Sequence record: OL631482.1
Direction: 5' to 3' (one strand)
Source: Escherichia phage ECML-359
Length of the DNA stretch: 64,000 nucleotides
Below, in pieces: positions 3,957 to 40,393 of this stretch. Position numbers and translations under genes: made by a program. The notes under the pieces are model-generated. The model saw nothing but the letters and a program-made list of their open reading frames with translations. It was not told the DNA's origin and made no database searches. The first letter of the stretch is position 1, and every line of letters begins with the position of its first letter.

Positions 3957-4181
3957 TTAAATTTTCCAGTTACCGTTTTCATCAATAAATTCAATCCAGT
4001 CATTTACTGACCACTTAGTTGTATCGCCTTTTGGAGCAGAATTTAAAGCGTATAATCCTTGTTTAAAAAGCATTCGTTTGATATTCATGTTTTCCTCAGC
4101 TGTAACGATAGCACTCGTTTGATTTACGTTTTGCAACAAGATGAGAAGTATTATAATCCAAATCATCCTCAACGTATACAT
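3957..4181 (-). CDS. hypothetical small protein (start uncertain; overlaps 4096..4389)
   Basis: ORF track; hydrophobic N-terminus may be an out-of-frame artefact; internal Met near 4088 possible. Confidence 0.35.
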   Translation of the reverse strand: MYTLRMIWIIILLILLQNVNQTSAIVTAEENMNIKRMLFKQGLYALNSAPKGDTTKWSVNDWIEFIDENGNWKI

Positions 4182-4819: not shown

Positions 4820-4887
4820 TTTGTTTTCCTCATCAGTAGTTGATGGGATAATGATACACCGTTCAAAGGGGCTTGTACACCCCTTTT

Positions 4888-14728: not shown

Positions 14729-14764
14729 TTTATTCTCCAGTATTTGGTAACTCAGTATGGGAAC

Positions 14765-14793
14765 ATTATACGTCTATCCCCATACCATGTACA
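14765..14793 (-). promoter_or_regulatory. early promoter candidate (-35 TGTACA, 17 bp, -10 TATAAT)
   Basis: Minus-strand reading TGTACAtggtatggggatagacgTATAAT; conserved leader to ATG 14728. Confidence 0.45.
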
Positions 14794-15312: not shown

Positions 15313-15429
15313 TTTATTCTCCGTTTGTTTATTTGGTAACTCAGTATGGAATCATTATGCATCATGACCATCTGGTTGTACACATATACTAAATAAAAAT
15401 ACTTAATAAAACCATAAAGGAGAAAGTTT

Positions 15430-19627: not shown

Positions 19628-19655
19628 TGTATTCTCCTCAGTAGTTGATGGGATA

Positions 19656-19685
19656 ATAGTACACCCTTTTTATGAGGATGTAAAC
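19656..19685 (-). promoter_or_regulatory. early promoter candidate (-35 GTTTAC, 18 bp, -10 TACTAT)
   Basis: Minus-strand reading GTTTACatcctcataaaaagggtgTACTAT, then conserved leader tatcccatcaactactgaggagaa. Confidence 0.5.
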
Positions 19686-19694
19686 CCCCTAAAT

Positions 19695-19722
19695 GAAAAA
19701 AGGTCCACCCGAAGGCAGACCT
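19695..19722 (-). terminator. rho-independent terminator (8-bp stem, UUCG loop, U-run)
   Basis: Minus-strand GGTCTGCCttcgGGTGGACC followed by TTTTTT. Confidence 0.6.
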
Positions 19723-19728
19723 TTTGAA

Positions 19729-23717: not shown

Positions 23718-23773
23718 GATTATCTCCTTTTGTTTGATGGGATAATCATAACTCATTTCAATCTGCTTGTACA

Positions 23774-25552: not shown

Positions 25553-25852
25553 TTAGAAAGAACCAGAACCTTTAATTGTGTTCTGGCGACCTTTATTTTC
25601 TAATTCAGAATGGTCGATTTCGTATGCTTGTGCTACACCAAAGGCCTTTTTAACTTTAGCTAAAGAACCTTTAGATGTAACAATATTAAAAGTATTGCCT
25701 TTAGTAAAATCAACCAAATCCACTTGTACACCCTGTTTACCGAGGCTTGCTACAATAGCATCAACATATTGTTGGTCTAAAGTACCTTGGACTCCAATTT
25801 GGAATGCTTTAGGGGCTTTGGCTTCTGTGATAAATTCTTGATAAGTTTTCAT
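25553..25852 (-). CDS. internal-protein-like virion protein with capsid-targeting N-terminus
   Basis: Starts MKTYQEFITEA, the T4 IP capsid-targeting sequence; early promoter cassette upstream. Confidence 0.65.
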   Translation of the reverse strand: MKTYQEFITEAKAPKAFQIGVQGTLDQQYVDAIVASLGKQGVQVDLVDFTKGNTFNIVTSKGSLAKVKKAFGVAQAYEIDHSELENKGRQNTIKGSGSF

Positions 25853-25877
25853 TTATTCTCTCCAAGTTGATGGGATA

Positions 25878-25906
25878 ATTATACACTATCCCATCATAAA
25901 GTAAAC
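25878..25906 (-). promoter_or_regulatory. early promoter (-35 GTTTAC, 17 bp, -10 TATAAT) inside palindrome
   Basis: Minus-strand reading GTTTACtttatgatgggatagtgTATAAT; -10 lies in loop of GATGGGATA/TATCCCATC inverted repeat. Confidence 0.55.
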
Positions 25907-26172: not shown

Positions 26173-26220
26173 TTTATATTCCATTGTTTGGTTGATAAAA
26201 TCATTATACAACCTTTTTAG

Positions 26221-26637
26221 TTAAGCGTACACAGCTTTCCCATAGTATTTGTACCAGGTAGGCTTTTGAGAAATTTTCTCATTCAGTCTGGCTTGACTGA
26301 TTTCAATTGACCAGATTGATGGTTGATAATCATTCTTCCATTCATCAGGAATATCATTTAAATCTTGTGTAGAAATATCTTTTATGTTAAACCCTCGCTT
26401 TAAACATTCCGCAATAAGTTCTTGATGCCGGTTTTTAAGGAACAAAAGCTTATCATAAAAGAAGGTGACATGACCAGTCCCTAAAAGAAAAGATGATGGG
26501 ATTTTAAAGTCAGACACCTTTTTACCATTTTGCACATGCTTACGAACAGCGCCAAAAACGCGAGGAAGTTCACGATATTCAGCCATAAGATGTTGGTCAG
26601 CGAGTTCAGATACCAGGGTTAAATTAATGCGAGTCAT
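26221..26637 (-). CDS. denV: endonuclease V (pyrimidine-dimer DNA glycosylase)
   Basis: 138 aa; [35 protein letters not shown]...[10 protein letters not shown] matches T4 DenV as recalled. Confidence 0.9.
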
Positions 26638-26663
26638 GTTTGTTCTCCGTAGTTGATAGGGTC

Positions 26664-26692
26664 ATTATAACCCTATCATTTGGAGATGTACA
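26664..26692 (-). promoter_or_regulatory. early promoter (-35 TGTACA, 17 bp, -10 TATAAT) inside palindrome
   Basis: Minus-strand reading TGTACAtctccaaatgatagggtTATAAT upstream of denV. Confidence 0.5.
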
Positions 26693-27181
26693 CTAATATG
26701 CGTCAAAAGTTCCGGTACGGAACGTTTCTATAACTCGTTTGGCTCGGTTCGGAGTCTGGACTTTATACCATCTTGAGTCCGCCAGTTCCTTGGCAGCCGC
26801 TTCCCATGATTTAGCCTTCAGTAATCGCATACCCTTAGGAAAACCAGCAACACCAGCAACACCCATCTGGAATACCATATTAATGAGTGCACAACGACGA
26901 ACTTCATCCAGTACATCATAAACAGGTTTTAAGACAGGATGCCTCAAGATTCCGGCTTTAGCCTTTTCGACCGAACGGTTAAACAGTGTTTCGGCTTCGT
27001 GCTGGGTTATACGACCATTACAAACGCGACCCATGAGCTTATCGAGCTCGGCGCGAGCAACATCTTTAGATGGGTTCTTAGTTATCAGTTGCCCGATGCC
27101 AATGGTCCAATAGCCTTCAGTATCTTTATACAAATCCAACTTACAACCTTCATCTATACGTAACATTTCGAATATATTCAT
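26693..27181 (-). CDS. e: lysozyme (endolysin)
   Basis: 162 aa; [12 protein letters not shown]...[13 protein letters not shown]...[14 protein letters not shown] matches T4 lysozyme as recalled. Confidence 0.95.
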
Positions 27182-27182
27182 A

Positions 27183-27204
27183 ATACCCCCTTATATAGGG
27201 GTAT
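27183..27204 (-). promoter_or_regulatory. leader hairpin occluding the lysozyme SD, with overlapping late-promoter-like AATAAATA
   Basis: 7-bp stem ATACCCC/GGGGTAT ending 1 nt before the e start codon; AAGGGGG SD lies in the loop/3-prime arm. Confidence 0.5.
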
Positions 27205-27207
27205 TTA

Positions 27208-27666
27208 TTATCCGAAAATTTGAGTCATTACCTTGTACATCGATTTGCCCATCACATACTGCCATTGACTCGGTTTAATCAGAGCAAATGCATCGAACTC
27301 TGGAACCGAACTACCATCCGGGAAGGTATGATAGGCAGAGCATTTACTATGTCTGAACTGCTCATGCTCGACCGGAACCGTGTACAGAAACAGGTGAAGA
27401 TTTTTGTTATCTGAATAACGGAATTCACCCAGGTCCTTTAAGAATGCTGGGTCATATTGGGTAAACCCGGTTTCTTCTTCGGTTTCACGGATAGCAGCTT
27501 CAATCGGGGATTCACCAGCTTCAACATGACCCTTAGGGATGTCCCATTTGTGTGCAGGCATACCTGGTTTACGAGAACCAGTCACACGACCCATGAATAA
27601 CTCTTTATCTTCAGTCATGAAAATAATGCCGGCGGATAATTCTTTCACCTTGTTTTTCTTACTCAT
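27208..27666 (-). CDS. nudE: Nudix hydrolase
   Basis: Nudix box GHVEAGESPIEAAIRETEEETGF; start at MSKKNKV after trimming track ORF. Confidence 0.8.
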   Translation of the reverse strand: MSKKNKVKELSAGIIFMTEDKELFMGRVTGSRKPGMPAHKWDIPKGHVEAGESPIEAAIRETEEETGFTQYDPAFLKDLGEFRYSDNKNLHLFLYTVPVEHEQFRHSKCSAYHTFPDGSSVPEFDAFALIKPSQWQYVMGKSMYKVMTQIFG

Positions 27667-29171: not shown

Positions 29172-29230
29172 AATATTTTCCTCATTGATTGTGGGACCAT
29201 TGTGTCATAGTCCCACTTGGATGTACACAA

Positions 29231-32981: not shown

Positions 32982-33492
32982 TAAAACGATTAAGTTTACG
33001 TTTCCGTTTACGACTTTCTAATGTGTACTCAGCCGCCAAATCAAGAAGCTCATCTTTATCATAATTTTTAATATCCGTATAAGCGGGACGACGGTCAACC
33101 ATTCCAAAGTGGTCACCATTTTCTAACATCAAATAACACACCAAATGGTCATCATCGTCCGCATTAGTAAGCTGTTTATAATCACTTGGTTCGTTTAAAG
33201 CATATACTGAATAACGTAGTCCAGCGAATTCCACTCGTTGAATACCCAGATTTACATCAATAATTTCCAAGGCATCTGCGAAAGAAAGGTCTTCAGCTAA
33301 AGCAAAAATAAAAGGCAATTTGGTAGTATCGCCGCGACTTGTTGTTCTTCTTAAGAAATCATTGGAATAGCCCAAGTCGCGGCGGATTCTATAAAGAACT
33401 GTGTTAGTTTCAGTGGCAAGACCACTACCGCCAAACCATTCCACATTTGATAAAAGATTATCATATAAAGTCATAATTTTCTCCTCTCCCAA
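32920..33492 (-). CDS. hypothetical protein (190 aa) with C-terminal FIAECRE
   Basis: ORF track; promoter/terminator hairpin upstream. Confidence 0.5.
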   Translation of the reverse strand: MGEEKIMTLYDNLLSNVEWFGGSGLATETNTVLYRIRRDLGYSNDFLRRTTSRGDTTKLPFIFALAEDLSFADALEIIDVNLGIQRVEFAGLRYSVYALNEPSDYKQLTNADDDDHLVCYLMLENGDHFGMVDRRPAYTDIKNYDKDELLDLAAEYTLESRKRKRKLNRFIAECREYAKGVQNANAISAK

Positions 33493-34489: not shown

Positions 34490-34572
34490 TTTATTCTCCA
34501 GTGTTTTATTTGGTAACTCAGTATGGAATCATTATGCCTTAAAGCAGGGGGCTTGTATACCCCCTTTTTGAA

Positions 34573-35004: not shown

Positions 35005-35045
35005 TTTATTCTCCAGTGTTTTATTTGGTAACTCAGTATGGGATA

Positions 35046-35074
35046 ATTATACACTATCCCACTTGGAAGTAAAA
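35046..35074 (-). promoter_or_regulatory. early promoter (-35 TTTTAC, 17 bp, -10 TATAAT) inside palindrome
   Basis: Minus-strand reading TTTTACttccaagtgggatagtgTATAAT, then conserved leader ...actgagttaccaaataaaacactggagaataaa. Confidence 0.5.
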
Positions 35075-35512: not shown

Positions 35513-35618
35513 TTTATTTCTCCAAAGTTTTGTTTGATTCAGTGTGTAACTCAGTATGGAATCATTATGCATCCAGTCAATTCGGATGTACACTACTTTT
35601 TGAAGAAATATTAAAAAT

Positions 35619-35638
35619 AAACCCGCCGAAGCGGGTTT
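35619..35638 (-). terminator. rho-independent terminator
   Basis: Minus-strand AAACCCGCttcgGCGGGTTT followed by ATTTTTAATATTT. Confidence 0.55.
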
Positions 35639-37156: not shown

Positions 37157-37233
37157 TGGTCGGGGTGGTGGGATTCTAACCCACAACCTACGGTTTAGAA
37201 GACCGTTGCTCTATACAATTGAGCTACACCCCG
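37157..37233 (-). tRNA. tRNA-Arg (anticodon UCU), CCA encoded
   Basis: Hand-folded cloverleaf: acceptor CGGGGTG/CACCCCG, D stem GCTC/GAGC, anticodon stem ACGGT/ACCGT, loop CTTCTAA, T stem GTGGG/CCCAC. Confidence 0.8.
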
Positions 37234-37235
37234 GG

Positions 37236-37309
37236 TGGCCCCATCCGGACTTGAACCGGAAACCTGCCAGTTATGAGCCGGATGCTCTAACCAATTGAGC
37301 TACAGGGCC
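37236..37309 (-). tRNA. tRNA with CAU anticodon (Met or Ile2)
   Basis: Hand-folded cloverleaf: D stem GCTC/GAGC, T stem TCCGG/CCGGA with TTCAAGT loop, anticodon loop CTCATAA; one anticodon-stem mismatch. Confidence 0.65.
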
Positions 37310-38751: not shown

Positions 38752-38779
38752 TTTATTCTCCTCAGTAGTTGATGGGATA

Positions 38780-38808
38780 ATTATACGCTATCCCATTCAA
38801 AAGTACAC
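38780..38808 (-). promoter_or_regulatory. early promoter candidate (-35 GTGTAC, 17 bp, -10 TATAAT) inside palindrome
   Basis: Minus-strand reading GTGTACttttgaatgggatagcgTATAAT, then leader tatcccatcaactactgaggagaataaa. Confidence 0.45.
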
Positions 38809-39063: not shown

Positions 39064-39088
39064 GTTGTCTCCAGTAGTTGATGAGATA

Positions 39089-39118
39089 ATTATACTGCAG
39101 TTATCCCATCGCGTATAC
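39089..39118 (-). promoter_or_regulatory. early promoter candidate (-35 GTATAC, 18 bp, -10 TATAAT)
   Basis: Minus-strand reading GTATACgcgatgggataactgcagTATAAT, then leader tatctcatcaactactggagacaac. Confidence 0.45.
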
Positions 39119-39996: not shown

Positions 39997-40329
39997 TTAT
40001 TTATAAAGTTTTGCTAGTTCTTTACGTCCGCGAGCAGACATAATAAATTGTTCATCGCCAATTTTAAAATAAGCCATACCGCCGTCAACAGCGATACCAA
40101 TTTCTTTAGTACCTTCTTTGCCTTTCCACTTGCCACCAGATTTCAGGACAGCTTCAACTGCAGCTTTGGAATATTTGGACGTTTGAAAACGTTCATTACC
40201 AATCTGAAAGAAAACACCATCTGCATTTTTGGTTAAACCAAATTTCAGGGAGCCTTCACTATCATCAATTGATTTGGTCTCATTGATGGCGGATTCGGCT
40301 AAAAACTCGTTGTAAGTTTTGATGTTCAT
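39997..40329 (-). CDS. internal-protein-like virion protein with capsid-targeting-like N-terminus
   Basis: Starts MNIKTYNEFLAES; Gly/Lys-rich mature part. Confidence 0.55.
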   Translation of the reverse strand: MNIKTYNEFLAESAINETKSIDDSEGSLKFGLTKNADGVFFQIGNERFQTSKYSKAAVEAVLKSGGKWKGKEGTKEIGIAVDGGMAYFKIGDEQFIMSARGRKELAKLYK

Positions 40330-40364
40330 ATTAACTCCGTTTGTTCATTCGTTGGTGTAGGAAC

Positions 40365-40393
40365 ATAATACTGCACCTACACTTATTTGTACA
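40365..40393 (-). promoter_or_regulatory. early promoter (-35 TGTACA, 17 bp, -10 TATTAT) inside palindrome
   Basis: Minus-strand reading TGTACAaataagtgtaggtgcagTATTAT; arms GTGTAGG/CCTACAC flank the -10. Confidence 0.5.

Follow-up and report, generated by a model that had tools for sequence, protein, structure and literature searches.

The inverted repeats that bracket the −10 element in early-promoter cassettes of Escherichia phage ECML-359 are the stem-loop part of the PeSL (promoter-early stem-loop) cassettes already described for T4-like phages. Judged from sequence evidence, their most likely site of action is read-through RNA from the upstream gene, in which they would fold into hairpins that mark the gene boundary as attenuators or 3′-end protectors (probability, about 0.6); DNA-level roles are less supported than this RNA role. 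Analysis of a 64,000-nt stretch of sequence record OL631482.1 (here called the window) establishes the anatomy of the elements, the enrichment of pairing around the −10, its strand asymmetry, and a complementary distribution of these hairpins and ordinary terminators. The initial annotation of the window, which had reported the palindromes, overlooked their identity with published PeSLs and with the T-even internal-protein (IP) locus promoter that carries an inverted repeat.

Early-promoter cassettes in the window

The window covers the early-gene region of a T4-like phage of the genus Gaprivervirus (VR7/SP18 group), with the early genes on the minus strand. Early promoters were located using a cassette-specific weight matrix; a generic σ70 consensus scan returned 62 sites against 54 expected and was uninformative for these promoters. 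Sixteen early-promoter cassettes were identified, all on the minus strand between 4.8 and 40.4 kb. The stretch that bears them is the nrdC-tk-regB-ip-denV-e-tRNA region, in keeping with the many copies of PeSLs found in hyperplastic early regions, and none was found in the gp53/gp5/gp6 structural-gene part of the window. On the coding (minus) strand, the order of elements is −35 (GTGTAC or GTTTAC), a 17- to 18-nt spacer with the 5′ arm, TATAAT or a similar hexamer, the 3′ arm, Shine-Dalgarno (SD) sequence, and ATG. The sequence upstream of the promoter is A-rich, much as in PeSLs, the SD is GGAG or GAGG, and the ATG lies 25 to 51 nt past the −10. The stop codon of the upstream gene is no more than 12 nt from the −35 in most window copies. 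When Rfam covariance models were run over the whole window, two tRNAs alone reached the gathering score and no family fitted the hairpins.

In 8 of the 16 cassettes, the −10 is bracketed by a stem of 7 bp or more, counting G·U pairs, with the 5′ arm in the −35/−10 spacer and the 3′ arm at approximately −6 to +4, beginning 0 to 3 nt past the −10. The remaining eight cassettes lack such a palindrome. A hairpin brackets the −35 in two cassettes and lies upstream in three, which corresponds to the variable stem-loop position of PeSLs.

The focal copy spans 25850 to 25906 (minus strand), from the −35 GTTTAC (25901-25906) to the ATG (25850-25852) of an internal-protein-type gene (MKTYQEF...), and the upstream stop codon ends 2 nt ahead of the −35. 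Written on the plus strand, its palindrome consists of GATGGGATA (25869-25877), ATTATA (25878-25883; the minus-strand TATAAT), and TATCCCATC (25887-25895). On the coding strand, the 5′ arm TGATGGGATA (25887-25896) falls within the 17-nt −35/−10 spacer, the −10 hexamer occupies a 9-nt loop, and the 3′ arm TATCCCATCA (25868-25877) adjoins the −10 and spans the expected start site. The RNA hairpin has a predicted free energy of −17.2 kcal/mol (z, −4.6).

The other copies are likewise on the minus strand. The denV cassette carries a two-tier hairpin (26644-26686), with an inner stem TGATAGGGT (26670-26678)/ACCCTATCA (26654-26662) around TATAAT (26664-26669) and an outer stem TCTCC (26682-26686)/GGAGA (26644-26648), in which the SD is predicted to be masked. 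A stem GTGTAGG/CCTACAC (40355-40382) surrounds TATTAT (40365-40370) ahead of an IP-like gene (ATG at 40329). Stems were also found at 39080-39110 (GATGGGATA/TATCTCATC, with one G·U pair, around TATAAT at 39089-39094), 38772-38796 (ATGGGATA/TATCCCAT, around TATAAT at 38780-38785), 35038-35062 (GTGGGATA/TATCCCAT, with a terminal G·U pair, around TATAAT at 35046-35051), and 29191-29216 (GTGGGAC(T)/(G)GTCCCAC, around CACAAT at 29199-29204). The stem at 14753-14787 has 12 pairs including G·U, with the core GTATGGG/CCCATAC, around TATAAT (14765-14770). A weak version with a 5- to 6-bp stem (GGTTG/CAACC or AAGGTT/GATTTT) lies at 26197-26215 around TATAAT (26203-26208). All five palindromes quoted in the initial annotation as flanking TATAAT are thus present at the positions it gave.

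Pairing around the −10 exceeds chance

The palindromes are real and non-random. Native duplexes between spacer and downstream sequence averaged −9.88 kcal/mol in the window cassettes, compared with −7.4 kcal/mol when partners were swapped among copies (the native value was reached in 4 of 20,000 permutations) and −5.75 kcal/mol (standard deviation, 0.58) for shuffled spacers. In a wider set of 168 unique cassettes, drawn from the window and 40 related loci, a helix score of ≥6 was obtained for 49% of native cassettes, 11.8% with swapped partners, and 6.3% with shuffled spacers. Single hairpins folded as RNA gave −14 to −17 kcal/mol (z, −3.4 to −5.1), and as DNA −5 to −8.6 kcal/mol (z, −1.6 to −5.1). 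Across the Tevenvirinae, at least 18 distinct arm sequences retained complementarity. Complementarity above chance coupled with differing arm sequences is a sign that selection acts on pairing and not on sequence, and the earlier proposal that the stem itself is selected is upheld by both controls.

That proposal had rested on covariation of the arms, which held between paralogous copies and between genera; within positional orthologues from 13 Gaprivervirus genomes, the changes were interconversions of Watson-Crick and G·U pairs, and no double compensatory substitution was seen. Covariation was assessed by partner swapping and shuffling, as fixed-column scoring over all copies is inappropriate where arm position relative to the −10 varies (5′ gap, 0 to 10 nt; 3′ gap, 0 to 3 nt in most). 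An arm-normalized alignment was left unscored because such a score would be circular. In a MAFFT alignment of denV upstream regions, the −35 and −10 aligned well and the SD side was misaligned owing to differing leader lengths; denV arm pairs were therefore read directly from the sequences.

Strand asymmetry of the helices

Among the 13 Gaprivervirus genomes, 10 distinct pair changes could be compared between orthologues, a small sample of related sequences. Eight of the 10 interconvert Watson-Crick and G·U pairs on the sense strand (A·C on the other strand). The two disruptive changes are A·C and both affect terminal pairs; no internal pair is disrupted. Substitution density in the orthologues was no lower at paired positions (0.070) than at unpaired ones (0.084). 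An IMG/VR search with DenV yielded three Gaprivervirus genomes, so the power of the orthologue test is limited. In the wider set, mismatch pairs inside helices comprised nine G·T and one A·C. Of 32 hairpin clusters, 24 folded more stably on the sense strand than on the antisense strand (P = 8e−4). The mean difference in fold energy (sense minus antisense) was −2.24 kcal/mol, against −0.40 kcal/mol expected from composition alone.

These data show strand-specific selection on pairing, and they fit sense RNA and sense-strand DNA alike: since G·T is the least destabilizing mismatch in DNA, a single-stranded DNA hairpin of the sense strand is also compatible with them.

Hairpins, terminators, and intergenic room

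The −10-bracketing hairpins are nearly confined to junctions where the upstream stop codon abuts the −35, and ordinary terminators (a hairpin followed by a T run) occupy the upstream position where there is more room. A −10-bracketing helix was present in 71% of unique cassettes with the stop codon no more than 5 nt from the −35, and in 1 of 36 with at least 21 nt of room; counted by cluster, the proportions by intergenic room were 26/44, 2/12, and 1/16 (Fisher P = 0.0014). Conversely, 24 of the 36 roomy junctions contained a terminator, compared with 6.6% of random 80-mers and with 6 of 123 tight-junction cassettes that passed the same rule.

Cassettes in the window without a −10 palindrome illustrate this relationship (all on the minus strand). 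Canonical terminators lie at 35619-35638 (AAACCCGCTTCGGCGGGTTT followed by ATTTTT), ahead of the promoter at 35593 with 47 nt of room, and at 19696-19725 (AAAAGGTCTGCCTTCGGGTGGACCTTTTTT), ahead of the promoter at 19685 with 43 nt of room. Two further cassettes have the −35 hexamer in the loop of a hairpin, namely GGGGG-TATACAAG-CCCCC (34546-34565), with a T-containing tail, and GGGG-TGTACAAG-CCCC (4868-4883), followed by TTT.

No U tract directly follows the −10-bracketing stems, whose tail reads CAACUAC... or CUGAGUUAC..., and a terminator scan of the window called none of them terminator-like. Canonical intrinsic termination is therefore not expected of these hairpins.

A proposed role at gene boundaries

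Each cassette combines an AT-rich upstream region, a σ70 early promoter, a conserved leader, an SD, and an ATG, with the palindrome as its stem-loop component. We propose that transcripts reading through from an upstream early promoter would fold the hairpin at the cistron boundary. Tight gene packing brings the upstream stop codon right up to the −35; the only sequence-free positions left are then the 17- to 18-nt spacer and the discriminator/+1 region, which would place the constrained TATAAT in the loop. The hairpin would thereby stand in for the intrinsic terminator found where junctions have more room, and may attenuate read-through, block 3′-5′ exonucleases to leave a protected 3′ end on the upstream cistron, or both. 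T4 early promoters start transcription approximately 7 nt past the −10. With the 5′ arm upstream of the −10 and the expected +1 within or after the 3′ arm, the 5′ strand would be missing from local transcripts, as the initial annotation had argued, and their leader would be unstructured.

A GGAG(AATAAAA) RegB-type site just downstream could generate the 3′ end of the upstream cistron. On a more novel and less probable reading, the hairpins could be a distinct class of boundary elements without a U tract that are coupled to RegB cleavage of the downstream GGAGAAUAAAA site; upstream cistrons would then gain a hairpin-protected 3′ end and the downstream cistron would be inactivated. Our literature search returned no T4 transcript 3′-end mapping study. 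At the DNA level, the repeated cassettes may in consequence serve as homology patches for gene shuffling, as in the published PeSL model.

If this proposal is correct, its importance is modest: it illustrates how a promoter and a gene-boundary hairpin can be packed where a stop codon touches the −35. Cassette borders are also exchange points of accessory genes (internal proteins and ORFans), which could aid annotation and engineering of therapeutic phages.

Alternative explanations

In T4, the genes e, soc, 49, and I-TevI each have a promoter within the 5′ strand of an SD-masking helix (Uzan and Miller 2010, PMC3014915), and the hairpins described here could form a general translational switch of that kind: read-through mRNA would be kept from expressing the downstream gene, leaving its translation solely to mRNA made from the local promoter. 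The TCTCC/GGAGA pairing predicted in the window denV cassette fits this explanation. So do denV and regB of T4, denV of JS98-type phages, and denV of many other Tevenvirinae, where the spacer or the −10/+1 region pairs with the SD and the arms covary. Predicted SD pairing also reached 0.52 in read-through RNA against 0.33 in transcripts from the local promoter, but the former did not exceed that obtained with shuffled spacers (0.58), and SD masking was rejected as a general role on that basis. The SD is involved in only 2 to 3 of the 16 window cassettes, clearly so only for denV (26693), and the 3′ arm ends 5 to 25 nt upstream of the SD in the focal copy and most others. In the focal copy, the main stem ends 5 nt ahead of GGAG, and the only pairing predicted beyond it is a weak CUUU/GGAG extension that includes two G·U pairs. 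A general switch is thus unlikely, and SD masking probably concerns a subset (denV of the window, denV and regB of T4, and denV of JS98-type phages) in which the helix would reach the SD and just the locally initiated mRNA would be translated.

The initial annotation had allowed for action either at the DNA level (cruciform, operator, or recombination site) or on read-through transcripts. The latter is favored by the interconversion of Watson-Crick and G·U pairs, the more stable sense fold, and the alternation with terminators. A cruciform or single-stranded DNA fold might nevertheless serve as a site of recombination or of cleavage, by endonuclease VII for example, that drives cassette shuffling and mini-circle formation, or might modulate the promoter in a supercoiling-dependent manner. 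Arms of 7 to 10 bp with loops of 7 to 14 nt form cruciforms poorly, which makes cruciform extrusion unlikely, and the low stability of the hairpins as DNA agrees with this; nor does the strand asymmetry (G·T rather than A·C, with the sense fold the more stable) suit a symmetric cruciform. In RB49, a mini-circle crossover mapped to the loop of a PeSL stem-loop, and a protein that recognizes the stem-loop was speculated upon (PMC2839356). Consistent with gene insertion, deletion, and replacement between close relatives, the cassettes 39118, 26232, and 15383 have positional orthologues in just 1 to 2 of the 13 genomes, qualitative observations made without a null expectation. SP18 contains hybrid cassettes that reveal exchange within cassettes, one joining a 39118-type promoter to the 38808 leader and another combining the 15383 gene with a promoter of the 14794 type and both of its arms; in TH15, a deletion has an endpoint at the −10. 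However, these exchanges are explicable by plain homology across the 50- to 70-bp conserved cassette, and the alternation with upstream terminators has no obvious rationale at the DNA level. We consider a DNA-level function of this sort doubtful. By analogy with integron attC sites, in which structure is conserved, sequence is variable, and one strand is recognized, the hairpins might be strand-specific folded recombination sites, with which T4-like phages would excise and insert single-gene cassettes as mini-circles; this seems a long shot. An operator at which a dimeric regulator, of phage or host origin, turned off early promoters would suit the real dyad symmetry and its location over the −10/+1, typical of repressor operators, yet no conserved dyad common to the promoters was found, with at least five arm sequences in one genome and variable distances to the −10 (5′ gap, 0 to 8 nt; 3′ gap, 0 to 3 nt) as well as variable arm lengths. 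As half of the early promoters have no repeat and the strand asymmetry would be left unexplained, an operator is scarcely credible. The stems could finally be without function, as by-products of the promoter consensus, of the common ancestry of duplicated cassettes, or of mutation in which one arm is templated by the other; quasi-palindrome-templated mutation has reportedly been documented in T4 in work by Ripley. The lack of double compensatory substitutions within orthologues would agree with this, as would the conservation of the 3′ arm sequence (TATCCCATCAAC or GATTCCATACTGAG) even where a matching 5′ arm is missing (cassettes 23774, 19685, and 4880), which suggests that the 3′ arm is under another constraint. 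Against it, swapped partners with the same consensus and descent pair far worse, arms unrelated across lineages are complementary, and palindrome presence tracks intergenic room and terminators, which a mutational by-product would not predict. Absence of function is accordingly quite improbable.

Comparison with known systems

The read-through RNA hairpins proposed here share with intrinsic terminators a stable, G/C-containing stem directly after the stop codon at the 3′ end of a cistron, and, within the same genomes, they sit where junctions with more room have genuine terminators. They differ in having no U tract after the stem and in their large loop (7 to 14 nt), which is due to the −10 hexamer that it contains. 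With the hairpins of T4 e, soc, 49, and I-TevI they have in common a promoter inside or at the 5′ strand of an RNA helix, so that long transcripts initiated upstream are predicted to fold and locally initiated ones are not. The likeness extends to spacer-SD pairing in denV of the window and in many denV and regB promoters. In contrast, the SD lies outside the helix in the focal copy and most others, and the internal promoter is an early σ70 promoter here and a late one in those T4 genes.

The focal site lies between IP-type genes with the MKTYQEF leader, as at T-even IP loci. Repoila et al. (1994, EMBO J 13:4181) are said to have described repeats flanking the T-even IP loci and an early promoter with an overlapping inverted repeat. 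In T4 itself, the −10 of ipII is enclosed by a 14-bp stem, TCCTAGAATTGTGA/TCACAATTCTAGGA, and that of ipIII by the stem AATTGTGA/TCACAATT. The arms are unrelated (GATGGGATA here and AATTGTGA in T4), and in the window the same design extends beyond IP loci to denV and to open reading frames at 14.7, 29.2, and 35.0 kb.

PeSLs have been described in phi1/RB49 (Arbiol et al. 2010, PMC2839356) and in PST/T4 and nt-1/KVP40 (Comeau et al. 2014, PMC4122927). They are repeated intergenic cassettes of ∼60 to 70 bp in hyperplastic early regions, with an AT-rich upstream part, σ70-type −35 and −10 elements ∼17 nt apart, a stem-loop, an SD, and a start codon, and are tied to gene gain, loss, and replacement between close relatives; the window cassettes share all of these features. 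The variable position of the stem-loop, the G-run/C-run stems, and the G·T pairs were noted in the published work as well. Five subclasses were distinguished, one with the stem-loop overlapping the −10 box; this subclass and that with the stem-loop between −35 and −10 were the commonest in phi1 (PMC2839356). In what may be the sole published functional test, one RB49/phi1 stem-loop cut lacZ expression like rrnB T1 (PMC2839356). The −35 of the window cassettes (GTGTAC/GTTTAC, the T4 early type) agrees with the TTTACW type of T4/PST (PMC4122927) and differs from TTGACA of RB49, and the stems have GGG/CCC cores in place of the long polyG/polyC of published PeSLs. Gaprivervirus was outside the genomes analyzed in those papers, and we found no paper on these cassettes in VR7, SP18, or JS98. 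With the phenomenon in the literature since 1994 and 2010, its presence here will not surprise a T4 specialist. The PeSL papers contain no tests of covariation, strand asymmetry, or alternation with canonical terminators, and the present analysis goes slightly beyond them in the strand-asymmetric pattern of change and in the either/or relation with ordinary terminators.

Organization of the early-promoter cassettes

Gaprivervirus T4-like phages (VR7, SP18, VR20, RZ, and the TH series) match the window at 91 to 96% identity (megablast). In the annotated SP18 locus, the minus strand carries nrdC, mobD, tk, vs, regB, internal-protein genes, denV, e, nudE, many small ORFs, tRNAs, 57B, 1, 3, 2, and 4, and this block is followed by plus-strand genes 53, 5, and 6. 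The sole Rfam matches within the window were tandem tRNA-Arg(tct) and tRNA-Met(cat) genes (37157-37309, minus strand). The palindrome at 25869-25895 lies beside denV, between two internal-protein-type genes (MKTYQEF... leaders), and its cassette reads on the minus strand ...TAA agcataact GTTTAC ttta TGATGGGATA gtg TATAAT TATCCCATCA actt GGAG agaataa ATG. T4-type early promoters combine a GTTTAC/GTGTAC hexamer, a 17- to 18-nt spacer, and TATAAT; GTTTAC is also found in the T4 ipII, ipIII, denV, and regB promoters. Using a cassette-specific weight matrix, 16 cassettes were identified between 4.8 and 40.4 kb, all on the minus strand, with GGAG as the Shine-Dalgarno (SD) sequence in 13. The 5′ arm occupies the −35/−10 spacer and the 3′ arm begins 0 to 3 nt past the −10, so that the expected start site is covered by the 3′ arm.

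Two conserved leader families follow the −10, tATCCCATCAACTAC... (19651-19675, 23734-23750, and 4834-4856) and gATTCCATACTGAGTTACCAAATAAA... (15346-15360, 34516-34536, and 35559-35569). Both are retained even in cassettes without a matching 5′ arm, implying an extra constraint on the 3′ arm region. A promoter-like site, GTATAC-N18-TATAAT, within a coding region (about 4140-4179, minus strand) is conserved out to a Dhakavirus; it is probably not a cassette but a product of coding constraint, as no SD or ATG lies close downstream.

Palindromes around the −10 element

The five palindromes quoted in the initial annotation were all found at the correct coordinates. TATAAT had been described as lying between inverted repeats in many copies; this holds for 8 of 16 cassettes, with stems of 7 to 12 pairs (G·U allowed) and loops of 7 to 14 nt holding the −10. 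The arms, said to differ while remaining complementary, were unrelated between cluster representatives (for example, GTGTAGG, TGGGATA, GTGGGAC, ATAGGGT, GTATGGG, TGGGCTC, AGAGGAC, TGGAAGC, TGAGGTA, and GTAGGAG), the complement of each lying immediately past the −10. Mean spacer/downstream duplex energy in the window was −9.88 kcal/mol, compared with −7.4 for swapped partners and −5.75 (SD, 0.58) for shuffled spacers, and the native value was reached in 4 of 20,000 partner-swap permutations. Across 168 unique cassettes from the window and 40 Tevenvirinae loci, helix scores of ≥6 were obtained for 49% of native, 11.8% of swapped, and 6.3% of shuffled pairings. The five hairpins folded at −14 to −17 kcal/mol as RNA (z, −3.4 to −5.1) and at −5 to −8.6 kcal/mol as DNA. 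The palindrome observation is thus confirmed as real and statistically solid, and the proposed selection on pairing is supported, with complementarity kept while arm sequence differs.

A hairpin at the cistron boundary

The position of the hairpin follows the space available at each gene junction. In cassettes whose −35 directly adjoins the upstream stop codon (40394, 39118, 29228, 26693, and 25906, named by window position), the hairpin brackets the −10; where 43 to 52 nt are available (35593, 19685, and 15383), it sits upstream of the promoter, taking the form of a canonical hairpin plus T-run terminator in 35593 and 19685 (35619-35638 and about 19696-19725, respectively). The former can be read as a terminator from the plus strand too. 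In 34560 and 4880, a GGGG(G)...CCCC(C) hairpin encloses the −35 (34546-34565 and 4868-4883, minus strand), with T residues after and an A run upstream of each; these elements are promoter-overlapping and terminator-like. Only the regB (23774) and 12193 cassettes lack any hairpin in the window. When 159 unique cassettes were grouped by distance from the upstream stop to the −35, a −10-bracketing helix was present in 71% with ≤5 nt, 42% with 6 to 20 nt, and 1 of 36 with ≥21 nt (clustered counts, 26/44, 2/12, and 1/16; Fisher P = 0.0014). A hairpin plus T-run terminator was found in 24 of the 36 roomy junctions versus 6.6% of random 80-mers. A hairpin embedded in the promoter and an ordinary terminator therefore substitute for each other at one position, the cistron boundary, and this alternation argues most strongly for assigning the hairpin to the upstream transcript. 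It also suggests that packing puts the −10 in the loop, with only the spacer and the discriminator/+1 region free of constraint.

Sense-strand RNA or DNA

The initial annotation had left two levels of action, DNA or read-through RNA; three lines of sense-strand evidence, from small samples of related sequences, favor the latter over the former. Among positional orthologues of the window hairpin cassettes in 13 Gaprivervirus genomes, 8 of 10 distinct pair changes exchanged Watson-Crick and G·U pairs; two created A·C, both at terminal pairs, and internal pairs were never disrupted. As a sense-strand G·U is an A·C on the opposite strand, a symmetric cruciform would not tolerate such changes. In the 40394 cassette of TH44, GTT to GCA gives three more inner pairs and AC to GT turns two outer pairs into wobbles. 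Of 32 hairpin clusters, 24 had a more stable fold for the sense than for the antisense strand (−13.3 versus −11.1 kcal/mol; Wilcoxon P = 8e−4), and the difference for cluster representatives was −2.24 kcal/mol against just −0.40 for composition-matched shuffles. The excess of G·T over A·C among helix imperfections (9 versus 1) is only suggestive, given 36 versus 15 in swapped controls; G·T is also the mildest mismatch in DNA. Distinct substitutions per position were 0.070 at paired and 0.084 at unpaired sites, paired sites being no more conserved. We favor a structure acting on the sense strand, in its simplest form as RNA from upstream read-through.

An operator is all but excluded by the variation of arms between copies. 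At the DNA level, the conserved cassettes are clearly exchange points. SP18 carries minus-strand hybrids (positions 33152 and 11054 of its locus), in which the promoter half of one cassette precedes the leader and gene of another: the 38808 leader and gene follow a 39118-type promoter, and a 14794-type promoter with both arms lies ahead of the 15383 gene. In TH15 (23894), an internal-protein gene carries a deletion running from its −10 as far as the start codon; TATAAT is joined directly to GTTAAC..., with loss of the 3′ arm, leader, and A of ATG. These rearrangements, for which homology alone suffices and the hairpin is not needed, fit the shuffling model for promoter-early stem-loop (PeSL) cassettes of T4-like phages.

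On read-through RNA, the −10-bracketing stems lack a following U tract and are therefore not expected to act as canonical intrinsic terminators. The hairpin could plausibly attenuate or pause read-through polymerases, or shield the upstream cistron from 3′-5′ exonucleases. Just downstream of the hairpins, leaders contain GGAGAATAAAA, matching the strong RegB-site consensus GG*AGRAYARAA (PMC3014915), and most end in GGAGAATAAAATG, which also fits it (14729-14738, 38752-38761, and others; minus strand). Cleavage at this predicted site would place the upstream RNA end shortly past the hairpin. We assign the boundary hairpin on sense RNA, as stated, a probability of roughly 0.6.

Masking of the SD was rejected as a general function: the SD is involved in just 2 to 3 of 16 window cassettes, and pairing is no higher than for shuffled spacers. 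In the window denV cassette (26635-26700), an outer TCTCC/GGAGA stem atop TGATAGGGT/ACCCTATCA brings the helix to the SD, as do the T4 denV (TCTCCTGTAG/CTACAGGAGA) and regB helices. In Tevenvirinae denV promoters (L009-L044, L055, and L091 among the compared loci, about 70 nt upstream of denV), a 5′ arm that sits in the spacer or overlaps the −10/+1 pairs with the denV SD; arms are lineage specific with complementarity kept (CTCCGTTTG/CAAACGGAG, TCCTCCAAG/CTTGGAGGA, AGTGTTCTC/GAGAACACT, AGTAGCCT/AGGCTACT, and GATGTCTTCC/GGAGGACATC). This denV and regB subset matches the masking established in T4 for e, soc, 49, and I-TevI (PMC3014915). Upstream of window gene e (lysozyme; 27181-27215, minus strand), a late-promoter-like TAATAAATA precedes the hairpin CCCCT-ATATA-AGGGG (27187-27201), and the SD (AAGGGGGTATTATG) forms the 3′ arm of this hairpin. 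The arrangement appears to be the masking of translation on early transcripts that is known for gene e of T4.

Comparison with known PeSL systems

PeSLs were described in phi1/RB49 as repeated intergenic cassettes that combine an AT-rich region, σ70 promoter, stem-loop, SD, and start codon, in five subclasses by stem-loop position; one stem-loop lowered lacZ expression as rrnB T1 does, and a mini-circle crossover was located in the loop of one stem-loop (Arbiol et al. 2010, PMC2839356). PST/T4 and nt-1/KVP40 also have PeSLs (Comeau et al. 2014, PMC4122927), and Arbiol et al. credit Repoila et al. 1994 with seeing PeSL-like sequences beside T-even internal-protein genes (PMC2839356). No account of such cassettes from a Gaprivervirus genome came up in a literature search, making the window copies new as instances, not as a kind. 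The element is very probably a PeSL-type cassette, and the window copies are further instances of the published PeSL or T-even internal-protein-locus promoter with an inverted repeat. T4 itself has the same design, with TCCTAGAATTGTGA/TCACAATTCTAGGA around the −10 of ipII and AATTGTGA/TCACAATT around that of ipIII.
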